From Chlamydiales bacterium (GTDB taxonomy: Bacteria; Chlamydiota; Chlamydiia; Chlamydiales; JARBTN01), in NCBI GenBank assembly GCA_029240195.1, contig JARBTN010000002.1, forward strand, positions 1 to 46,914: 46,914 bases of DNA, in the 5' to 3' direction. Position numbers and translations under genes: made by a program. Below the pieces are notes generated by a model. The model had not been told where the DNA came from and searched no databases. It saw only the letters and a program-made list of their open reading frames with translations. Shown here in pieces: positions 24,750-37,643 of this stretch (its first letter is position 1; each line of letters opens with the position of its first letter).

Positions 24750-24796
24750 AAAGGCCTTGAGACTTAAGGAAACTTTCCTTAAGTCTCAAGGCCTTT
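24750..24796. repeat. Perfect 23-bp inverted repeat with a 1-nt centre
   Basis: AAAGGCCTTGAGACTTAAGGAAA-c-TTTCCTTAAGTCTCAAGGCCTTT. Confidence 0.85.
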
Positions 24797-24983
24797 TGTT
24801 TTTTCTACCCCAACCCTCACTCAAACGCTCAAAGATAGACAAAACCTCAATCTGTGCCAAGCCAAGTTTTGCCCATCAAAAGTTTTAGCCCGGCTACCTA
24901 AAAAGCTAAAGGCGGCTAAGAATTTTGCCGATGACTCCCAAAAGGTATATTTTCAAAACTCGCTTTTATTGGAGAGGATTTTT

Positions 24984-26429
24984 ATGAGCGTTGTTACTCC
25001 TGGCACCCAAGGTTCTCTTTTGACAGCTCCCGGGGCCCCCCCGCTGAGCACCGACATCAACCACTTCCCAAAGCATGAGACTCTTGTCAATGTCAATGGC
25101 AAGCAAACGGTCACGACGACCTTCATCCGCCAAGAGGCGCAAGACTACTTTCTTCAGCAGATGGCCATTGTCCAAAACTTTTATAATAACTCTGGCGGCG
25201 TCACCTATGCGCAGGCCAATACAGCGATGCAGACGTTGCTCACTTGGGCCACCACCAATTACGTCGACAACACCGGGGCCGAGCAGCTGGCAGCTTACCC
25301 CAAAACCGTCAATGGCGTATTAATCACCGACTTAGGGCCCATCACCCCTTTTATGGCCGAGAGCTTAGAGCTGACGCGCAAATTGGCGCAAGGGCTTGGC
25401 GTCTTTAATGGCGCGGCCCCTTCGGCGACACAATTGGCGGTCTGGCGCTCGACAGCATATATGGAAAACGCCATTGCCGAAGTGATTTCTAATGGCAATA
25501 AAGCCCGAACAGGAACGCTAGTCTGGCTCGACACGGAGACCGGCAAGGCGCCAACAGCCTCATCGACAAAAGCTGCTTGGTACTTTGTCGAATCAAAGAT
25601 GGTCTCCACCTCACTTCAGCACTTAGTGGAAGTGGAATATGTGAGAGGCGGCTATGACGCCATCTATAAAGAGCTCTTCACACTAAACCAAGCCATATCG
25701 ACCAACTCCAGCGTTTTAAAAGTGCTCAACAAGTTGCAACAGGTGATGAACCAAAAGGCGCCGACGGCCTGGCGGATGCAGATCGAAGATTTGCCCATTG
25801 CCGTCAGCATTGCCGACCCTTTTGCTGGCCAGCAAAAATTTGACACCTTCACCAAGCGAATGGACGATTGGGAAAAAGCTAACTTTGATAGTGACATTCC
25901 GCCCCGGGTCACCACCGATAACCTCACCGAAGCCAAAGAAGCCATCGATATCATGACGCAGAATTTAGAGGCCTATGGCTATACGACAGTATCTACCGAC
26001 CGTTTGGAGCAGCTGCAAGATATGCTCAAGTACTTCATCGCCGCTCCAAGCACCGTTGGGACAAACGCGCAGCCCAGTGGAGGGATTGTCTACCAGCTCG
26101 ATGAGGCAGGCACAGGCGATGTCACCATTGCTCTAAACCAGGTGATTGCCGATATGGAGGTCATTTTAAGCGACTCGAGCAATACGACGACGACAGAGTC
26201 GGCTCTTCAAGTTTGGATGGAAGACTTCAATACGGCGGCCCATACCGACGGCCACCACCAAATGCACCTAAACCAAGCCATTGCCGCAGCGACATCCTTT
26301 AACGATCTGCAGCGTGAAAACATGCGCAAGACGATGTTCTTGTACGAGGAATTCATCAAATCGGCGGGGGCGCTGCTCTCGAGAATCACCCAGATCATTG
26401 AAAAATTGGCTGGCACCATCTCCCGTTAA
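24984..26429 (+). CDS. Hypothetical T3SS-associated protein, candidate needle-tip (LcrV/IpaD-like) subunit
   Basis: First gene of the run leading to the translocon. Amphipathic C-terminal helix SFNDLQRENMRKTMFLYEEFIKSAGALLSRITQIIEKL. ATG at 24984 follows a GGAGAGG RBS. Confidence 0.6.
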   Translation: MSVVTPGTQGSLLTAPGAPPLSTDINHFPKHETLVNVNGKQTVTTTFIRQEAQDYFLQQMAIVQNFYNNSGGVTYAQANTAMQTLLTWATTNYVDNTGAEQLAAYPKTVNGVLITDLGPITPFMAESLELTRKLAQGLGVFNGAAPSATQLAVWRSTAYMENAIAEVISNGNKARTGTLVWLDTETGKAPTASSTKAAWYFVESKMVSTSLQHLVEVEYVRGGYDAIYKELFTLNQAISTNSSVLKVLNKLQQVMNQKAPTAWRMQIEDLPIAVSIADPFAGQQKFDTFTKRMDDWEKANFDSDIPPRVTTDNLTEAKEAIDIMTQNLEAYGYTTVSTDRLEQLQDMLKYFIAAPSTVGTNAQPSGGIVYQLDEAGTGDVTIALNQVIADMEVILSDSSNTTTTESALQVWMEDFNTAAHTDGHHQMHLNQAIAAATSFNDLQRENMRKTMFLYEEFIKSAGALLSRITQIIEKLAGTISR

Positions 26430-26453: not shown

Positions 26454-27806
26454 ATGCTCATAGAGACATTCATCGAGAAGCTGCCCAGCATCTCTTATCA
26501 AAATAGCGGCCCCGCTTCTTTTGCAGCAAGCGGGCTGCTCTCTGAAGGGTCCGGCTCGGCGTTTTCTTCCTTTTTAAATGGATTCAATCAAAACCGGCAA
26601 TGGTCGAGCTGGACTGACTTCATCGATAAATGGCGCGCCTTTACCGGCTATGGGGCAGCTCACCCAGGGCTCAATGCAAGGTCCGGTCCAGCCTTTACAG
26701 CCCTTGTCAGCGACTTAAAAAATGCCTTGGCCATCCAGGCCGGTGGCGGAGATTTTGCCCCTTACTTGGCAAGCTTCACTGACCCGACCGATTTTGATCG
26801 AGACATCGAGCAGATTGCCGACGGCTTGATGACCCACATCTTAAATGACTTTCCCTTCCCCTCAGATGGTAGCGCTCCGACATCTGCCTATTTCTTTAGC
26901 TACCTGCAAGACGCCCTGACGACAACGGCTTACTTGCTCAATAGCAGCGCCTCTAATAACGTCGCCACCTATGAAGCCATCTATAGCTCCTTATTTAGCA
27001 CGGGCTTTTCAGAGAAGCTCGTCGACTTCATTGGGCGGCAGGTGGAAGGGGAAGGGTTCTTCACCCCTAGCGTCTTCTATGACAAATGGATTGCAGAGAT
27101 CATCTCCGATTATAAATCCTTGCAGATGCAAGACTTGTCGCCAAACGAATTGAAGAGGCGGCAGGTGACCGATGTCTTGTTTCTCGTGCTCATCCAAATG
27201 CTCGAGATCATTCAAGAATCGATTTCGGTGCAGGCCAAAGTTGCCACTTACATCGCCAAATGGCAAGAGCAATACACCAATTGCATGGAGGCCACCCCCC
27301 TCTATGTACAAAGTCCCGATAGCTACGCCGGGCTGACTCTCGATCGACTGCATGAAATTGCTGTAGAAGCGGTAGAGAAAGAAGGGGTGCCCCAAAGCGC
27401 TTTTGCCGTCCCCCTTCGCGATCCGCCTTCACCCTTCATTACGACAGTCAACTATGCCCTGCCTAAAGACCACGTATCGGGCATTCTCAACTTAACTGTC
27501 GGCGTCGACTATTTAAAGACGCACAGTTTCCCCTTAGGCGGCGTCGGCGAGCTCTACGGCAACGACATCATCGTCAGGCAAAGATGGCAGGGCTCAGGCG
27601 ACAATGCGTCCACGAGAAGTGAGAAGAACCAGGTGATGAGCCAATACTTGTCCAATATCCGCGGCCGCCGCACAGCCTTGAGCTCGCAGCAAAAGCAAGT
27701 AGAGAGCGGCTTAGAGACGACCAACAACTCTCTCAACCAGCTCTCTGCAATCATGACCGCTGTGTTAGCTCAGCTCAATGGCATGCTGAAAGATATCTTC
27801 CGTTAA
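26454..27806 (+). CDS. Hypothetical T3SS-associated coiled-coil protein (paralog A)
   Basis: GAGG RBS, long C-terminal heptad helix ending IFR, strongly similar to the next gene. Confidence 0.7.
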   Translation: MLIETFIEKLPSISYQNSGPASFAASGLLSEGSGSAFSSFLNGFNQNRQWSSWTDFIDKWRAFTGYGAAHPGLNARSGPAFTALVSDLKNALAIQAGGGDFAPYLASFTDPTDFDRDIEQIADGLMTHILNDFPFPSDGSAPTSAYFFSYLQDALTTTAYLLNSSASNNVATYEAIYSSLFSTGFSEKLVDFIGRQVEGEGFFTPSVFYDKWIAEIISDYKSLQMQDLSPNELKRRQVTDVLFLVLIQMLEIIQESISVQAKVATYIAKWQEQYTNCMEATPLYVQSPDSYAGLTLDRLHEIAVEAVEKEGVPQSAFAVPLRDPPSPFITTVNYALPKDHVSGILNLTVGVDYLKTHSFPLGGVGELYGNDIIVRQRWQGSGDNASTRSEKNQVMSQYLSNIRGRRTALSSQQKQVESGLETTNNSLNQLSAIMTAVLAQLNGMLKDIFR

Positions 27807-27833
27807 CCAGAACACTGTTTTTTGGAGAATCGA

Positions 27834-29306
27834 ATGCGTATCGAAGACTTTATCAATTCCCTTTCCCAGTATACTTACCAGGTCGCCGGACCGACAAGTT
27901 TTGGGCAAAGCGGACTTTACGCCGAAGGGTCGAGCTCACAATTTGCCTCCTTCTTAAGCACCTTCAACCGCAGTCAAAACTGGTCGAGCTGGACGGACTT
28001 CATCGAAAAATGGCGCGCCTTTTCCGGATATCAAACAGCGCACCCAACAGTTGGCGTGGAAGAAGGCCCCGCTTTTTTAGGGTTTGTCTCTGATTTTAAG
28101 GTGGCGCTTGGCATCACCGCGGCAGGCGGCGATTTTTTGCATTATAAAAATAGCTTTGCCTCCAGTGCGGACTTTGATGCGGAAATCAATCACATTGTCA
28201 ACGGCTTGATGACGCAAATTTTAAATGACTACCCCTTTGCAGCCGATGGGAGCGCTGCCACTCCCACAGCCTTTTTTAACTACTTAAAACAGGCGATGAC
28301 AGTCACCGGTTATCTGTTGACGGCCACGGTCGGATCAAGCCAAGTGGCCAGCTATGAGAGGATCTACAATAGCTTATTTAGCTCCGGCTTTAGCGCCAAG
28401 CTCGTCGATTTCATCTCCCGCAAAGTGGCATCCGCGGGGTTTTTCACCCCCAGCCTATTTTATGAAGAGTGGGTGGAAGAGGTGCAAGCCGATTTTAAAG
28501 CCACGCAAGGAACGCTGCTCTCGCCAAACGAAAAGCAACGGCGGCAGATTGCCATGACGGTCTACGATATGCTGATCGAGATGATGCAAAATTTGCAAGA
28601 GACCGTCTCCATGCAATCGAAGGCCACGATTTACTTATCCCAGTGGCAAAAAGAGTATACGACCTGCATGCAAGGCACGCCCATCTATGTCAGCGCGCCT
28701 TCCAACTACGCAGGGCTGACGCTAGACTCGCTCCATACCATTGCCGCAAATGCCATGAAATATGAAGACTTAGATCCCTACCACTTCCGCATTAAATACT
28801 GGACTCTGGTCGGCCCCTCGGCAATTGCAGAAGGAACCGGTCACCATCCCGCCGGGTGGCTGGGTGTTTGGACCAGCGAATATAAATGGGCCGGGATCTG
28901 GCTCGACTACGCCGCCAACCCCTACTTTCAAGCCTCTCTTCACCCGGCTCCCGACGGCTCGGCTTCGGGAAGTGGAACCACCCCTGGACCAAACAGCTTT
29001 GGCCTCGGCTGGATCAAAGGCAAGTATTATAGCTGGTATGATGGCGTCCAGCTTTGGAGCACCGATATGGTCATCCGGCAAAGGTGGCAGGGCGCAGGCG
29101 ACAATGCCGATGCCAGATCGGCCAGGAACCAGGTTTTAAACCAGTTTTTAGAAGACATGCGCGGCAAGCGGTCGGTGATCAAAGACCAAGAAGATCAGCT
29201 GACTAACGCGCTGCAAAACACGAACCACTCAATCAATCAGATGGGCGATCTCATGACGGCCATCATGCAGCAGATGAGCACCATGCTGCAGTCTATCTTC
29301 CGTTAA
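27834..29306 (+). CDS. Hypothetical T3SS-associated coiled-coil protein (paralog B)
   Basis: Start MRIEDFI matches paralog A MLIETFI; GGAGA RBS; lies directly upstream of the LcrH chaperone. Confidence 0.7.
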   Translation: MRIEDFINSLSQYTYQVAGPTSFGQSGLYAEGSSSQFASFLSTFNRSQNWSSWTDFIEKWRAFSGYQTAHPTVGVEEGPAFLGFVSDFKVALGITAAGGDFLHYKNSFASSADFDAEINHIVNGLMTQILNDYPFAADGSAATPTAFFNYLKQAMTVTGYLLTATVGSSQVASYERIYNSLFSSGFSAKLVDFISRKVASAGFFTPSLFYEEWVEEVQADFKATQGTLLSPNEKQRRQIAMTVYDMLIEMMQNLQETVSMQSKATIYLSQWQKEYTTCMQGTPIYVSAPSNYAGLTLDSLHTIAANAMKYEDLDPYHFRIKYWTLVGPSAIAEGTGHHPAGWLGVWTSEYKWAGIWLDYAANPYFQASLHPAPDGSASGSGTTPGPNSFGLGWIKGKYYSWYDGVQLWSTDMVIRQRWQGAGDNADARSARNQVLNQFLEDMRGKRSVIKDQEDQLTNALQNTNHSINQMGDLMTAIMQQMSTMLQSIFR

Positions 29307-29327: not shown

Positions 29328-29867
29328 ATGGACCTCGACCAACTACAAAAAGCCATGTCAGAAGTGAACCTCTTTGCCGGCAAGAAGGCAGAAGGGATGA
29401 TTAAAGACCTTCTCTCCAAAGCTATGACCAATGGCTCGTCGCCAAAGGCGGCCCTACAAATTAGCGAAGAGACGATGGAGGGCATCTATAGCCAAGGCTA
29501 TAACCTCTACAATCAAGGGCGCTATCAAGACGCCAGCTACGTCTTCCGCCTGCTGATGATGCTCGACTACAAGGTTGCCAAATACACATTGGGCCTAGCC
29601 GCTTGCTTGCACCGCTTGGGAGATTTTTCCAATGCCATCGTCATCTACACGTTGGTGGGAGTTTTAGAGCCGACAAATCCCATCCCTTACTACCATGCAG
29701 CCGACTGCTTTTTAAAATTGGGCCAAACTGAGGGCGCTTTTTGGGCCTTGGATCAGACAATCATGCTGAGCGCAGAGAATGAAGAGCATGCCGTCTTAAA
29801 AGAGCGCGCCAAGATATTGAAGCAAGGCGTGATGCAAGAAATGCAGCAAGAAAGACCTAAGCAATAA
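29328..29867 (+). CDS. lcrH: SycD/LcrH-family class II T3SS translocator chaperone (Scc2/Scc3-like)
   Basis: MEGIYSQGYNLYNQGRYQDA..VFRLL, YTLGLAAC, NPIPYYHAADC TPR pattern. Confidence 0.9.
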   Translation: MDLDQLQKAMSEVNLFAGKKAEGMIKDLLSKAMTNGSSPKAALQISEETMEGIYSQGYNLYNQGRYQDASYVFRLLMMLDYKVAKYTLGLAACLHRLGDFSNAIVIYTLVGVLEPTNPIPYYHAADCFLKLGQTEGAFWALDQTIMLSAENEEHAVLKERAKILKQGVMQEMQQERPKQ

Positions 29868-29934: not shown

Positions 29935-32244
29935 ATGAGTGAAATCAACCAACCCCCATCTTCGGGGTACAACCCACCAAATAATGATGGTTATTTAGCA
30001 GCAAAGGCAAATAACCCCAATTCAGTAGACGGCAATGTGGATACAACAGGAGCAATAGCTCCCAGTGGCAAGCTGAGAAAAGAAACCGATCCGACAACGG
30101 CCTATAACCCAAGCGCTGGCTCTACGGTCAACACCCAGAGCTTCACCTCCTCAGGAGAGACTCTCTTGGCAGAAAGCCCTGTTTTGGATATGCCCACAGC
30201 AACTCCGGCAGCTGTCATGCAGATGGATCCCAAGACGCTGGCGGCTCTGACCAGCTTGCCCGATCTGATTGCCATGATCTCAGAAAGCTTTACACCGAAG
30301 ACAAAAAGCGATGACGCAAGCGACCCAGCCTTGCCAAGCTCAGATGCGGAAGAAGAGGCCGGCCCCTTTTTTAGCAAAATGTTTCAAGTGCTCGGCCAAA
30401 AGGGCGCCAATGGCGACAAGCAAGATCTAGCTAACCTCCTCTCAGAGTCAGGAGAAGGCGAGGCTGCGACAGGCAGCGCCAAGAGCTCATCGCCTCTCGA
30501 TGCCGGCTTGGAAGCGCTTTTGGGCCTGCCCATTTTAGAAGGGATTGGCGAGACCTTTGCCGCTGACTCGGCAACCTTTGAGAAAGAACTCAATACGGTC
30601 TTGACAAAAGCGCTCGGCACCGACTTGGCGGCGGCCATCGACAAAGCCGCCTCGTCAAAAGATCCCAATGCCTTGACAGCTGAAGAGCTCAAAGTGGCCA
30701 ACAGCTACCTGACACTTTTGGCCCATGCGCTGGCACTCATCTCTTCCATGAAGCAAAAGATGAGCCAAGCTGACTCCAACAAGGTAGAAGATGCAACAAG
30801 AGCCAAACAAGATGCTGTGCAGCTGAAGATCAAAGAGACCGAAGAAAATCAAAAGACGGTGCTCGATCAAATTAAAGCCAAGCAAGAAGGAGATGGCGGA
30901 TGCGCCCTCGTCTTGAAGATCATCATGCCCATTGCCACAGCCGTCGTCGCCATTATTGCCGTCGTCGCAGCCATCTTTACAGGCGGGCAGAGCCTTTGGC
31001 TGATCGGCCTGATGATTGCCGCCTCGATTGCTATGACGGTGGTGACCACATTAGACTCGGCGCTTGACCTGACAGCCAAGCTGGCCGCTGAAATTGGCGG
31101 ACCGCTGGCCTCTTTGGTGATGGCATTTGCGATGATCCTCATTGTCTTGGTGACAGCTGGAGGGGGGCTTGCCATTGCCGCTGCCGCTTTAGCTAGAACA
31201 GCTTCCAGCGCCGTCGTCTCTCAAACCGTCGCCTCCGCGGTAAGGGCCTCTGTCGGCACGTCTGTGCAAGAGTCGATCAAGCAAGCAGGCAAGAGCACGA
31301 TACAAACAACGCTCACCCAAGTTGCCAAAGACGTGTTCATGACTAAAATGGGAGTGGCATTGGTCACAACGCTCGTGGTCGAGGTTTTGATGTCGAGCGG
31401 CCTCCTCAATCAGGCCATCACCGAATCTGTCCTAGCCATGGGCGGCTCACAAGAAGACGCGATGATCGTCTCTATCGTCTTAACGGTGATCATTGCCATC
31501 TTTATGATGTGCTTTGCGGTCTACGCCGCAGGAAGCGCGACAAAAGGGATCACTAGCGCAGCGGATGACATTGCCGAAGAGGGAGCCGGCGCAGCAGCGA
31601 CTGGCACAGCCAGCGCAGCTAGCACAGTCGTTAAAGCAGCTAAAGAAGGTGACAACTTGGCCGGCAGCGTAACGCAAGTGGCCGCTCAAAAAGCCATCGA
31701 ATTAGCTGCAGAAGAGGCCAAAAAGACCGAAAAGCTGCTCAGCAAATTTTTCCTGAAAATGTTGGAAAAGCTGGAAGAATTGATCGGATTGGCCCCAGGC
31801 TCGTTTAAAAATGCCAGTTCACTCTCAGATGTCGGCAGCATTGCCGGCAACATTGCCGGCAAGAGCGTGGTCCAGGCAGGGGAGTTTGGTGCAGATGTGA
31901 TCAAAGCGACAGTCGGCTGGGCGGGAAAAGATAAGCTGATCAAGATTGTCAACACTCTCACGCAGCTTTCTCAATACGCAGAGGGCGCTGTCATAACGGC
32001 CTCAGGCACTAAAAAGCTAGAGATGGCAGAAGAGAATTTAGAGCTGGTCAAAGCGCTGGCAGAAATCCGCACCTTCTTAGCTTACTACGACATGGATGTC
32101 AAGGCCTTTGATTCCATCTATCAGCTGTGCCTTGATATGCTTAAAGAGGGAAGCCAGACAACAAATGGCATGTTCGAAGTCTTTAAAAATATCATCAAAG
32201 GGCAGCAAGCCATTTTACAGAAAATGACAGACGGCGGAATGTAA
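29935..32244 (+). CDS. Major hydrophobic translocator (SctE/CopB-like)
   Basis: Follows lcrH. Ser/Pro-rich N-terminus, coiled coil, then several hydrophobic segments including AIFTGGQSL, and a C-terminal coiled coil. Confidence 0.75.
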   Translation: MSEINQPPSSGYNPPNNDGYLAAKANNPNSVDGNVDTTGAIAPSGKLRKETDPTTAYNPSAGSTVNTQSFTSSGETLLAESPVLDMPTATPAAVMQMDPKTLAALTSLPDLIAMISESFTPKTKSDDASDPALPSSDAEEEAGPFFSKMFQVLGQKGANGDKQDLANLLSESGEGEAATGSAKSSSPLDAGLEALLGLPILEGIGETFAADSATFEKELNTVLTKALGTDLAAAIDKAASSKDPNALTAEELKVANSYLTLLAHALALISSMKQKMSQADSNKVEDATRAKQDAVQLKIKETEENQKTVLDQIKAKQEGDGGCALVLKIIMPIATAVVAIIAVVAAIFTGGQSLWLIGLMIAASIAMTVVTTLDSALDLTAKLAAEIGGPLASLVMAFAMILIVLVTAGGGLAIAAAALARTASSAVVSQTVASAVRASVGTSVQESIKQAGKSTIQTTLTQVAKDVFMTKMGVALVTTLVVEVLMSSGLLNQAITESVLAMGGSQEDAMIVSIVLTVIIAIFMMCFAVYAAGSATKGITSAADDIAEEGAGAAATGTASAASTVVKAAKEGDNLAGSVTQVAAQKAIELAAEEAKKTEKLLSKFFLKMLEKLEELIGLAPGSFKNASSLSDVGSIAGNIAGKSVVQAGEFGADVIKATVGWAGKDKLIKIVNTLTQLSQYAEGAVITASGTKKLEMAEENLELVKALAEIRTFLAYYDMDVKAFDSIYQLCLDMLKEGSQTTNGMFEVFKNIIKGQQAILQKMTDGGM

Positions 32245-32275: not shown

Positions 32276-33706
32276 ATGAGCAGCAATTCTATTGACAGCG
32301 GTTCTACGGGAATTCCCGGCGGCGCCGAGCCTTCTAAAGACATGCAAACGGCCGGATTGCCCTTTGATTTTGGGCTAGGGCTTTTAGGCAGCGATAACAA
32401 ACGAGAAGCCATCGGCAAAGTGAGGGCTAGCGATATGCTCGATCCCACTTTTTTTGCCGGCAACGCCAATGTCAACCCCGACGGCAGCAGCTCGACAGCC
32501 GCCGATGAGCCCTGGCTCATCGTGCCCGATCAGGCTATGGTCGATCAATGGATCAAAGAAGTTTTGAGCCTCAACAAATCAGGCTCTCAACCTGACGCCT
32601 TAGCAGGCGGACTTGGAAGCCTCTTTGGCGAGCCCGATTCAATCGATGAAGGGGAAGTGTCCCTAGCGGCCACAAGCGCCTCTTCTCAGGCTTTGGACAG
32701 CTCCGATATCGATAAGCTGGCCTCATTGCTGGGCCTTAAGGCAAGTGCTGCGGATGGAGCCTCTCTCACGCCCAATCTTTGGGTATCGACATCGAGCTCC
32801 GTCTTTAGAATCTTTATGCTCCTCTCAGAGCTCGGCCCCATAAGGCAGGAGATGATGAAAGAGGAAGTCGTCGCTCTGATCAAAGGGATGCAGTCCTCTT
32901 TAGATTTGTCGTTGACGATCGCCGATAAAACAAAAGAGATTGGTGAACTGCAAGTGAAAGAAGCTGCCGCCCAGATTGGAGCGGCCGCAGCTCAAATAGC
33001 CAATGGCATGATGCAAATCGGCGGCGCTCTCGGCGGCGCGTTTGGGGGCTACAAAGCCCACAAAAAAGAAATGAAACATATCGCCGATCAAAAGGCTGAC
33101 TTGACGACCAAATACGCCCCGCCAGCTGCTGCCGCTGCACCTGCTGCAGGCCCAGGTCTAGCACCGCCACCTGCGGCAGGTGCAGCAGCGGCAGCAGGTA
33201 CCGTAGGCCCAGCTGCCCCTGCCACTCCTGCTGCCGGAGGCCCAGCCGCTCCTGCCGCTCCTGCAGCCGGAGGCCCAGCCGCTCCTGCTGCTGCCGCTCC
33301 TGCTCCTGCTCTTTCGCCGAAGGAGCTGGCTAAGAGAGAACGGGACAAAATGAAAGCCGAGACCGATTTAGAGGCTAGGACGCCCTCTTCCATGTTCGCT
33401 TCCAACGCCTATGGCAACGTCGCCCAACTTTCCAATGGCCTTGCCGGCGGAGTTGGCAAGAGCATTGAAGCAGCCGGTCAGATGGGTGTGCAAATCCTCT
33501 TTTTGTACACCAAGATGGCCATGGCGCTAGCTGAGGCGACAAAATCGATGGCTGAGGCGGCGAAGGGATCGCAAGATCAGGTCAACAACTCGCTGCGCGA
33601 TGATATCAAATCGCTTGCCGACGCTTCACAGACGCTGGCTAGCCTCTTGCAGGCATTCATCAGCACGGCGCAATCGCGCAGTTCGCAAGGGCCATCCGGC
33701 ACTTAA
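32276..33706 (+). CDS. Minor hydrophobic translocator (SctB/CopD-like) with an Ala/Pro-rich insert
   Basis: Third gene of the chaperone-SctE-SctB order; Gly/Ala-rich hydrophobic segments and a C-terminal amphipathic helix. Confidence 0.65.
   Translation: MSSNSIDSGSTGIPGGAEPSKDMQTAGLPFDFGLGLLGSDNKREAIGKVRASDMLDPTFFAGNANVNPDGSSSTAADEPWLIVPDQAMVDQWIKEVLSLNKSGSQPDALAGGLGSLFGEPDSIDEGEVSLAATSASSQALDSSDIDKLASLLGLKASAADGASLTPNLWVSTSSSVFRIFMLLSELGPIRQEMMKEEVVALIKGMQSSLDLSLTIADKTKEIGELQVKEAAAQIGAAAAQIANGMMQIGGALGGAFGGYKAHKKEMKHIADQKADLTTKYAPPAAAAAPAAGPGLAPPPAAGAAAAAGTVGPAAPATPAAGGPAAPAAPAAGGPAAPAAAAPAPALSPKELAKRERDKMKAETDLEARTPSSMFASNAYGNVAQLSNGLAGGVGKSIEAAGQMGVQILFLYTKMAMALAEATKSMAEAAKGSQDQVNNSLRDDIKSLADASQTLASLLQAFISTAQSRSSQGPSGT
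33194..33292 (+). repeat. 33-bp tandem repeat (PAAGGPAAPAA; two near-identical units and one degenerate unit)
   Basis: cctgctgccggaggcccagccgctcctgccgct / cctgcagccggaggcccagccgctcctgctgct. Confidence 0.8.
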
Positions 33707-36487: not shown

Positions 36488-36724
36488 ATGTTTGGACTAG
36501 AAAACAAAAAAAAGCCGCCCACTTTTCACTTTGATTTAGAAGACGAGCTCGCTGACGCCAAAGAAAAGAAAAAGATGCTGCAAAATTTGGAAAAGAAGAC
36601 GCAAGCCATCAAGACGGCCCTTCGGCATGGAGAGGATAAAGACGATTTTGACTTGCTAGGCCAGCTCCTCAATGGCTACACAGCTCTATCTAAAGTTGTG
36701 AGCCGGATTGGCAAGAAAAAATAG
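36488..36724 (+). CDS. cdsE: Needle co-chaperone CdsE (CT665-like)
   Basis: MFGLE...FHFDLEDEL...LRHG...LLNGYTAL; lies between cdsD and cdsF. Confidence 0.8.
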   Translation: MFGLENKKKPPTFHFDLEDELADAKEKKKMLQNLEKKTQAIKTALRHGEDKDDFDLLGQLLNGYTALSKVVSRIGKKK

Positions 36725-36900
36725 TTGAGCTTTTTCCTTGAAAGAGAAAAGCTTGAAGATATTCTGCAAGAGACTCTGCTAAAAAAGACTCTAAAAAGGC
36801 CCTGGCCGTTTTTAAAAAAAGCGCTTCAGGGACTTGGAAAAAACCACGCAAATGCACGTGAACCCGCTACTTAAACTCTAGAAAAAAACCAGGAGCTCCC

Positions 36901-37140
36901 ATGTCTCAAGACAGACAAGCCTTCTTCATGAGTGGACTTATCTCGATCGTAGAAAGCGCCACCGTCAGTGCTAAACTTAAGATCAGCGCCATTAAAAACA
37001 AAAAAAGCTCCATCAGCATTGCCGACATGTTCGAGATGCAGATGCTCATGAACCACTTGAGCCAGCTTTCTGAGATGTGCACTTCTGTCGTATCGGCGGC
37101 CAATACCGCGATCAGCTCGATGGCCCGCAACGTCAAGTAA
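36901..37140 (+). CDS. cdsF: T3SS needle subunit CdsF (SctF)
   Basis: ISIADMFEMQMLMNHLSQLSEM.TSVVSAANTAISSMARNVK, a chlamydial needle-type C-terminus. Confidence 0.85.
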   Translation: MSQDRQAFFMSGLISIVESATVSAKLKISAIKNKKSSISIADMFEMQMLMNHLSQLSEMCTSVVSAANTAISSMARNVK

Positions 37141-37217
37141 GCGATTTTCCTTTTAGCTTTCGTTTGAAGCGGAAGCTAAAAGATTTTTCAAACTCTCTCT
37201 TCTTTAGGTATTTCCTG

Positions 37218-37643
37218 ATGGATATCGACCAAGAATTTCTAGACGACCTCCCCCTCTTTATCGAAAGTGGATTCATCGCCATCAAGCAAATGGACGAGGT
37301 CTCTGCCAGACGCATCTTTGAAGCGGCGCAAGGGATGAGCCCCGGGCACCCCGCTGTCAAAGTCGGCTTTGGCTACATCCACCTCAATAAATTAGAGCTC
37401 AAAGAGGCAGCTTTAATTTTTTCTGAGGTGCTGGCCGAAGATCCGGATCACGATCTGGCCCATATGTTCTTAGGAATTTCCCATCTTTTGAATCAAGAGC
37501 ATCGGGCAAAAGGGGAACAAATCATCCGGCAAGTGATGCAAAAGTCAGAAGATGCAAGCATTGTCAATTTAGGGCAGACAACTTTAGATTGGGCCGCAAA
37601 AGAGCTGAAAACCAGTAAGCCTTTTTTCGCCCAACACTCTTAA
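37218..37643 (+). CDS. cdsG: TPR needle chaperone CdsG
   Basis: LFIESGFIAIKQMDEVSARRIF, GFGYIHLNKLEL; start reassigned to MDIDQ at 37218. Confidence 0.8.
   Translation: MDIDQEFLDDLPLFIESGFIAIKQMDEVSARRIFEAAQGMSPGHPAVKVGFGYIHLNKLELKEAALIFSEVLAEDPDHDLAHMFLGISHLLNQEHRAKGEQIIRQVMQKSEDASIVNLGQTTLDWAAKELKTSKPFFAQHS

Follow-up and report, generated by a model that had tools for sequence, protein, structure and literature searches.

The paralog pair and its operon

We describe two adjacent genes, called A and B here, that lie in a cluster of type III secretion system (T3SS) genes of a Chlamydiales bacterium (GenBank assembly GCA_029240195.1, contig JARBTN010000002.1). The DNA analysed, referred to as the window, is the whole stretch of 46,914 nucleotides (nt), and the cluster found in it is a chlamydial-type T3SS encoded on the + strand. 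Of the sequencing runs listed for it, the only one that contains it in full comes from a soil metagenome, which may be its source, and no RNA run is among those listed. The two genes and the parts of their products are located as follows.

26454..27806, + strand: paralog A (P0001), 450 amino acids (aa), from the list of open reading frames (ORFs) and BLASTP
26571..27098, + strand: N-terminal domain of A, residues ~40-215, a separable module with matches to sub-profile hidden Markov models (sub-HMMs)
27135..27353, + strand: central conserved helix block of A, residues 228-300, containing WQ..YT; helical periodicity, aligns to the first half of DUF720
27366..27569, + strand: variable insert of A, residues ~305-372, 3-20% identical to B
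27594..27803, + strand: C-terminal conserved block of A, residues 381-450, from RQRWQG to the final IFR; a long amphipathic helix that aligns to the second half of DUF720
27834..29306, + strand: paralog B (P0002), 490 aa, from the ATG at 27834; the ORF list extends it to the TTG at 27822
28518..28736, + strand: central helix block of B, residues 229-301, from the sub-HMM
28746..29069, + strand: variable insert of B, residues ~305-412, a Trp/Tyr/Gly-rich orphan sequence
29094..29303, + strand: C-terminal helix block of B, residues 421-490, from the sub-HMM

The ATG is the likely start of B, as it has a GGAG 6 nt upstream and agrees with the database gene call; the alternative TTG would give a protein of 494 aa.

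The initial annotation described A and B as tandem paralogs with a set of common motifs, and the alignment bears this out: the motifs are present and 217 of 490 positions are identical (44%, BLASTP E 2e-155). The differences are concentrated in one place, i.e. the identity in 30-column windows is 0.30-0.73 everywhere outside alignment columns 301-405 and 0.03-0.20 within these columns, which also hold most of the gaps. The divergent segment corresponds to residues ~305-372 of A (nt 27366-27569) and ~305-412 of B (nt 28746-29069), and it is sharply bounded by the conserved motifs AGLTLD..LH and RQRWQG. The earlier description of a variable segment between conserved blocks is correct because the measured divergence falls in one segment, but the limits given then (27384-27548 and 28767-29042) were slightly too narrow. 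In its 108 aa the B segment indeed contains many Trp, Tyr and Gly residues, namely 14 G, 9 Y and 8 W, the last number replacing the 7 W in 92 aa counted before; there is no W in the A segment.

The flanks of the insert display the hydrophobic periodicity of alpha-helices (100 degrees), strongest at A 239-266 and A 393-448, and contain 1-4% Pro+Gly. Neither protein has a transmembrane segment, the maximum 19-residue hydropathy being 1.84 for A and 1.37 for B. BLAST found no relative of the A insert among 57 family inserts beyond a 33-residue flank that is common with B, and a region-restricted search with the B insert matched only B itself among 63 candidates. The 87.9%-complete genome holds no further copy of either insert DNA, and apart from the A/B paralogy itself the searches revealed neither template-like repeats nor long repeats in direct or inverted orientation. 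In other words, neither silent insert copies nor template-like repeats, and hence no active cassette-switching machinery, were found. As a side observation on the N-terminal domain (N-domain), residues ~157-205 of A (26922-27068), with the motif SYE.IY..FFP, gave weak matches of the family profile to EF-hand proteins of the NCS-1/KChIP group (E 0.2-0.35, not independently significant), which may hint at a helix-loop-helix module.

The genes on the + strand follow each other in the order tig, clpP, clpX, a terminator at 24750-24796, ORF486, A, B and the LcrH/SycD chaperone. On the 3' side of the latter are the genes for a CopB-like protein, for a product in the second translocator position and for a chaperone of CesT type, then CdsD, small ORFs (one of them the needle candidate of 79 aa), CdsN and a YscO-like protein, followed by a FliN-type CdsQ, a Pkn5-like kinase and the secretin. 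The neighbouring features used below are these.

24750..24796, + strand: strong terminator-like hairpin after clpX, a 20-bp stem followed by a T run
24969..26429, + strand: ORF486, hydrophilic, with a conserved C-terminal helix; the conserved upstream partner gene
29328..29867, + strand: LcrH/SycD-family class II (translocator) chaperone, TIGR02552 E 1.2e-43, 148 bits (cut-off 104.8)
29935..32244, + strand: CopB-like major translocator after LcrH, with hydrophobic segments and a weak SseC Pfam match (E 3.9e-5, below cut-off)
32276..33706, + strand: second translocator-position gene, CopD-like by position only, with no family match
36901..37140, + strand: candidate needle protein, CdsF-like, 79 aa, a conserved small ORF in the T3SS cluster

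The hairpin after clpX marks the start of an operon whose first gene is ORF486, and no second terminator-like site comparable to it was found between 24969 and 29935. The suggestion that A and B belong with the T3SS translocator genes is thus upheld by an operon of chlamydial type with a TIGR02552 chaperone next door. The CdsF candidate has homologs in the genomes of 17 of 40 relatives, and its alignment had no significant match among the PDB sequences. Two details of this region may be added. A second small T3SS ORF of 78 aa is located at 36488-36724 (within the interval 36488-37643), and the tetratricopeptide repeat gene after the needle candidate is listed from a GTG at 37077, which overlaps the needle gene; its true start is probably further downstream.

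A family of proposed helical hairpins with an insertion hot spot

An exhaustive phmmer search of 1.84 billion proteins with B as the query gave 341 family representatives at E<=1e-3, 84 of them at <=1e-10, and given this number the pattern seen in A and B is far beyond chance. The family is unnamed though widespread: only two of 10 clusters looked up carried a name, and the named example is a 'hypothetical protein' of a Parachlamydia. A and B have no match in Pfam, NCBIfam or the PDB sequences. A word-index homolog search matched only the window's own proteins, and a related-locus search with one family protein returned only its own metagenome-assembled genome record.

The architecture of the family was investigated by scoring sub-profiles from A residues 40-215, 228-300 and 375-450 against 151 family sequences. 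Both the central and the C-terminal helix block are present in all 151 relatives, with the C-terminal block lying <=3 residues from the protein end in 148, and the N-domain is present in 102. The spacing between the two helix blocks is bimodal: it is <=20 aa in 93 sequences, 20-40 aa in one and 80-422 aa in 57. These 57 inserts fall into 11 mutually unrelated BLAST groups, i.e. groups of 35, 6, 5, 2, 2 and 2 members and five singletons. Since the helix blocks are universal and inserts of unrelated groups stand between them, the hairpin turn is an insertion hot spot, occupied by unrelated domains from one lineage to another and also when A is compared with B. In some lineages the two helices alone make up proteins of 150-215 aa. 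For A and B and family-wide, the earlier picture is supported: two conserved helices form a scaffold, and the domain that separates them is hypervariable or can be replaced. Among the relatives, whose comparison the initial annotation had proposed, the helix blocks are always kept and the segment between them varies.

The N-domain also occurs by itself. A stand-alone ORF of 240 aa (profile E 1.3e-18) was noted outside the window, on another contig of the set (G000 contig C68, L058:4612-5334, - strand), where its neighbours are pseudouridine synthase, RecX-like and topoisomerase IV/gyrase-like genes and no T3SS genes; a comparable ORF is found in genome G028.

The relation between the two helices was addressed by a mean-field coupling analysis of 170 sequences (effective number of sequences 160), earlier runs of direct coupling analysis having been dominated by gap artefacts. 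Thirteen of the 30 strongest inter-helix couplings fell into an antiparallel band set after a first look (background 20%, p 0.003), as compared with 2-9 in 20 shuffled-partner controls. This coevolution signal lends weak support to an antiparallel pairing of both helices.

Among 40 genomes from other families of the same order, the profile detected the family in 14. In a sample of 300 genomes of the phylum the distribution is uneven, i.e. the family is near-universal in some taxonomic families (31/32, 6/6, 5/5, 5/5 and 4/4) and was not found in others (0/62, 0/46 and 0/29). In the 41-genome set 26 genomes give an LcrH match that exceeds the curated cut-off, and these include all 15 that are positive for the family. 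The gene neighbourhood is near-invariant. In all of 40 further genomes an LcrH/SycD gene lies 3' of the family gene on the same strand, at gaps of -77 to 348 nt, and the ORF486 family is directly 5' of the family gene in 38 of these 40 loci and in most of the loci L044-L057 too. Nine of the 40 loci carry hairpin-only forms of 154-215 aa. The rule also holds in 13 of the 14 first genomes, the exception being G017, where LcrH is >10 kb away; altogether, 53 of 54 other genomes, and the window too, have the family gene directly upstream of the genes for the LcrH/SycD chaperone and for CopB. The family gene is, in short, locked into an operon of the order ORF486-hairpin-LcrH-CopB.

ORF486 itself represents a second unnamed family, tied to the translocator operon as tightly as A and B, with a conserved C-terminal motif ..LFVFEEFYKSA... 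Neither the single sequence nor the alignment matched Pfam, NCBIfam or PDB sequences, the LcrV Pfam profile matched none of 45 members, and the family was not found in 5 Chlamydiaceae genomes. The possibility that ORF486 is a hidden paralog of A/B, CT863 or DUF720 was considered and rejected (hhalign 0.1-2.2%).

Some further observations concern the same loci. All 14 relatives with the hairpin family also carry a needle gene that is detectable by the window's CdsF, a count that is confounded by kinship; this may reflect co-divergence of the two or merely kinship. In 8 genomes that lack the family, one-by-one hhalign comparisons of the 15 ORFs that occupy the place upstream of LcrH gave 49% for the best and <=13% for the rest, so that homology of these slot occupants to the family is not shown. 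One locus with no clear family match (L135, G003 contig C15) has an ORF486-like gene, three helical ORFs of 867, 334 and 403 aa and then LcrH, i.e. the layout of three-copy loci, with marginal profile scores (C-terminal block E 0.013).

The history of the pair was approached with a quick maximum-likelihood tree of 429 columns, from which the insert columns were dropped for low occupancy and in which support was given by the Shimodaira-Hasegawa-like approximate likelihood ratio test (SH-aLRT) only. A and B are sisters (99) and are joined next by the family members P0003 and P0006 (97), and all seven members that have both the N-domain and an insert form one clade (100), apart from 43 insert-less members. 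As A and B are sisters, the duplication is lineage-specific. Since then the two inserts have diverged or been replaced beyond recognition, the flanks staying 30-73% identical. Tandem copies are rare among the 40 further loci, where 39 have a single copy and one has two. In the first set, G017 has two tandem copies that are 30% identical and without insert, and G002 has three with partly alignable inserts of 210-380 aa. Two TAA-interrupted fragments located ~5 kb downstream of the intact pair in G017 (L052, G017:C1:124571-124992) may be a decayed third copy.

Relationship to DUF720 and CT863

A comparison with DUF720 was among the proposals of the initial annotation, and it pointed to a real, if remote, relative. 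We aligned 14 DUF720 orthologs, which represent the three tandem genes of this group in five genomes of Chlamydiaceae. The family alignment matched DUF720 (PF05302) with an hhalign probability of 90.0% (E 1.6e-6) over 127 columns, a span that covers the hairpin completely and has the point of insertion at its turn, and the 93 hairpin-only members gave 91.7% (E 7.9e-7). The controls remained below 1% (0.3% for reversed DUF720 and <=0.6% for ten column shuffles), and other helical chlamydial families scored low as well (CT863 family 0.5%, ORF486 family 2.2%, CdsF 4.7%). DUF720 is also the commonest sub-threshold Pfam match, with 20 of 106 members at E<=1 (best 0.0024); smaller sets gave 2 of 50 relatives and 1 of 40 (E 8.1e-4, 19.7 bits). 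No family member reaches the 25-bit gathering score, A and B have no DUF720 match at E<=1, their own genome contains no Pfam match to it, and the DUF720 alignment gave nothing significant against PDB sequences. As there is profile homology with no member above the Pfam cut-off, we regard this as a remote superfamily link, not as Pfam membership. The hairpin core is thus, on the evidence of the profiles, a remote homolog of DUF720 (CT847-849), a relationship that is new here.

The two groups have several traits in common: DUF720 proteins are chlamydial, are encoded by tandem copies, are type III secretion (T3S) substrates and are close in size to the hairpin-only members (150-215 aa). They differ from A and B in that the latter have a 190-aa N-domain and a domain inserted at the turn. 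Their gene context is different as well, since the three tandem Chlamydiaceae genes are not beside lcrH/copB (~18 kb from the CT863 cluster in G035). According to one report (bioRxiv 10.1101/577767), DUF720 is confined to the Chlamydiaceae and a single sister clade. Its members were T3S substrates in heterologous assays and carry T3S signals (PMC3931295), and their genes are listed together with scc2-CT577-copB-copD in sigma-54 regulon tables (PMC7482065). A later study describes CT848 as 'possibly secreted' into the host cytosol in one of three assays and was 'unable to conclude' for CT847 and CT849 (PMC12671076); delivery of DUF720 proteins to the host cytosol is not firmly established.

In a Chlamydiaceae genome the gene order is mutL, scc2, a 119-aa ORF, copB and copD, and a separate cluster of the same genome holds xerD, a 485-aa ORF, scc3, copB2, copD2, ispH and a CPAF-like gene. 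These ORFs are presumably those known under the locus names CT863 etc. Their lengths agree with the values tabulated for CT860, CT861 and CT863 (PMC1403754). The idea that A and B are positional homologs of CT863 stands as far as position goes, as CT863 occupies the same slot upstream of Scc3-CopB2-CopD2, but homology is not supported: hhalign gave 0.4% for the single sequence, 0.3% for a 28-sequence profile and 0.5% for the hairpin-only members, and CT863 scored 0.05% against DUF720 and 0.1% against ORF486. CT863, a Chlamydiaceae-specific hypothetical protein of 482 aa, resembles A and B in position, orientation and length, and its C-terminal third is helical and conserved. The N-terminus of its C. 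pneumoniae homolog drove T3S in Shigella (PMC3931295). In the literature on CT863, DUF720, SctA in Chlamydia and the Parachlamydia T3SS we found no link between the family and DUF720 or a tip, and the supplements of 10.1101/577767 may list related domains.

Possible function and comparison with known systems

Tentatively, we favour the view that the tandem copies A and B encode a hydrophilic protein which is secreted and belongs to the chlamydial translocator module, i.e. an SctA-like subunit of the needle-distal tip or platform with an exposed variable domain. The two helices would pair as an antiparallel coiled-coil hairpin which, after export through the needle, would dock, in the manner of SctA proteins, at the CdsF needle's distal end, either like the LcrV/IpaD tip pentamers or like the EspA/SseB filament or platform. 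The docked hairpin would be the platform for CopB/CopD insertion, and the domain at its turn would point from the needle towards the host membrane, so that it would be the exposed, fast-evolving part. Two paralogs would then provide two alternative or mixed distal surfaces. We are more doubtful about the wider claim that the family and its reduced Chlamydiaceae relatives, DUF720 (CT847-849), are together the missing chlamydial SctA tip or platform, a minimal CdsF-capping hairpin onto which interchangeable distal domains are grafted. If true, the host-contact specificity of environmental and pathogenic chlamydiae would be written in the insert.

The genes of SctA proteins occupy the same slot in other systems, lcrV being placed before lcrH-yopBD and sseB before sscA-sseC. 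What defines SctA proteins is a central coiled coil that is conserved, is flanked by N- and C-terminal domains and mediates needle binding and oligomerisation; SctA of enteropathogenic E. coli (EspA) is mostly coiled coil, and SctA proteins need a chaperone or a self-chaperoning N-domain (PMC10333785). SseB is termed a 'translocon platform' and SscA is SycD-like (PMC3854505). The layout of our family fits the description in PMC10333785, as far as can be judged from the alignments: a variable domain at the coiled coil is represented by the turn insert (57 of 151, in the 11 unrelated groups) and an N-domain (102 of 151), and the place beside a class II chaperone in the translocator operon is kept in 40/40 and 13/14 genomes and in the window. 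The helical periodicity, the coupling signal, the absence of transmembrane segments, the type III secretion of the DUF720 relatives and their place in the sigma-54 regulon tables likewise count in favour of the tip proposal, as does, subject to kinship, the needle gene carried by all 14 relatives with the family. A former tip candidate, CT584/Cpn0803, is described as lacking a coiled coil (PMC3260263) and now as a nuclear-pore-targeting effector (PMC11071493).

A protein language model (Atlas) places A closest to the IpaD/SipD tip (0.96, 212 of 256 features), T3SS_TC (0.94) and LcrV (0.94), and further down to CT620/CT621 effectors (0.91), EspA-containing clusters (0.87) and DUF720 (0.86). The neighbours of ORF486 in the same comparison, all at 0.95, are a chlamydial cluster with LcrV on 12% of its members, the CT620/CT621 effectors and V antigen. 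Because ORF486 scores equally, the signal marks a class of helical T3SS substrates and not A and B specifically.

Several points weigh against the tip proposal. The LcrV (PF04792), T3SS_TC (PF06511) and EspA (PF03433) profiles have no match in A or B at E<=1, tip and filament families are absent from the 25 commonest Pfam families over 106 members, and neither A nor the family alignment gave any significant match among the PDB sequences. The language-model likeness is unspecific, as the unrelated ORF486 obtains an LcrV-like 0.95 and the same CT620/CT621 cluster, and the Atlas model of A is poor (predicted local distance difference test score 0.44), with meaningless structural neighbours (template modelling score <=0.34). 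The register band of the coupling analysis was, as mentioned, set after an initial inspection. Of the 300 genomes sampled from the phylum, the window's own included, only 65 gave a family match, and this profile did not find it in 29 Chlamydiaceae genomes; if it is the tip, it has diverged beyond recognition elsewhere. Position alone is no proof of a role in the apparatus, because translocator operons also carry effectors. CT847 reportedly binds the host protein GCIP, which would fit an effector, and ORF486, being as conserved in position, could itself be the tip. An LcrV HMM run over the 41 genomes gave one weak match, in an unrelated protein, and nothing in the hairpin or ORF486 families. 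This lone match (L109, G032 contig C3, 131-1230, - strand; E 0.0086, profile positions 246-314) is a protein of ~360 aa at a contig end, with a C-terminal helix ending in ..WLSNMR, in a family-less genome, and it matches none of our four profiles.

Alternatively, A and B may be translocated effectors, in which the DUF720-like hairpin is a secretion or host-targeting module and the insert and N-domain carry diversifying host-directed activities, as in other chlamydial effectors. The remote homology to DUF720 speaks for this, as CT847-849 are treated as T3S effectors or substrates (PMC3931295, PMC7482065) and CT848 is the 'possibly secreted' protein of PMC12671076, and so do the variable copy number, domain content and tandem expansions (three in G002, two in G017) and the CT620/CT621 effectors among the language-model neighbours (0.91). 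We nevertheless find it unlikely: the slot between ORF486 and LcrH is near-invariant (53 of 54 other genomes), which would be uncommon among effectors, no part is universal other than a helical hairpin of 150 aa, in which the extreme C-terminal helix is most conserved, and host translocation of the DUF720 proteins is itself not firm, with CT847 and CT849 inconclusive in PMC12671076.

A still less probable alternative is that ORF486 is the true tip and the hairpin family an intrabacterial coiled-coil chaperone or regulator like LcrG/PcrG or CesA, which would prevent premature assembly of ORF486 or of the translocators and help to set the secretion hierarchy. The adjacency of the two genes (38 of 40 loci), the LcrV-carrying language-model clusters of ORF486 (0.95) and the existence of minimal members that are small helical hairpins of 150-215 aa would all suit this idea. 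Compared with lcrG-lcrV, however, the two genes stand in the opposite order. Nor would one expect a cytosolic chaperone to carry big domains, inserted or N-terminal, and a hypervariable region, and the ORF486 family has neither an LcrV Pfam match in its 45 members nor a PDB match. Tips of the Ysc type and of the locus of enterocyte effacement type do need a small coiled-coil partner (PMC10333785), but the DUF720 relatives of the hairpin carry T3S signals (PMC3931295).

It is very improbable that A and B differ through neutral decay of a redundant duplicate that is being lost, the 'cassette' being a functionless relaxed loop: the duplication is lineage-specific (sisters, SH-aLRT 99), most genomes have a single copy (39 of 40 loci) and both inserts are orphans, but both ORFs are intact with 30-73% identity in every flanking window and all family-invariant positions kept, the divergence is sharply bounded by AGLTLD..LH and RQRWQG instead of being spread, and in other lineages this very site is taken by insert families that are long and conserved.

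The chlamydial injectisome is without an accepted tip protein, and the family is a concrete, testable candidate whose gene keeps its place in the translocator operon in many chlamydial lineages and which has a tip-like layout, i.e. an N-domain, a helix, a variable domain and a terminal helix. DUF720, a group of unexplained proteins of human pathogens, is placed in an evolutionary setting that reaches far beyond the Chlamydiaceae. The insertion hot spot amounts to a natural experiment on the diversification of an exposed domain of a secretion-system part. Should the proteins turn out to be effectors, the findings still delimit a large superfamily of modular effectors that share a C-terminal hairpin.

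Among known systems, the initial annotation had drawn parallels to flagellin and to EspA. Flagellin (D0/D1, with hypervariable D2/D3) resembles A and B in having an insertion-tolerant, hypervariable middle, which would be exposed, between conserved helices, which would be the core of the assembly, and this part of the parallel is retained; the helices of A and B are, however, mid-protein and C-terminal, not N- and C-terminal, they are preceded by a separate conserved N-domain, and there is no Flagellin_N or Flagellin_C Pfam match. Family kinship in the strict sense is not supported, as no EspA, LcrV, IpaD/SipD or flagellin Pfam match was obtained at E<=1. The SctA proteins (LcrV/PcrV, PF04792; IpaD/SipD/BipD, PF06511; EspA/SseB, PF03433) likewise have no detectable sequence relationship to A and B. 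The resemblance is rather one of organisation: as with A and B, the SctA gene stands just before the translocator chaperone and the translocators, and the product is hydrophilic, with a mid-protein and a C-terminal helix that are separated by a variable domain and preceded by an N-terminal one. EspA, finally, resembles the minimal members of the family, which consist of the hairpin only.

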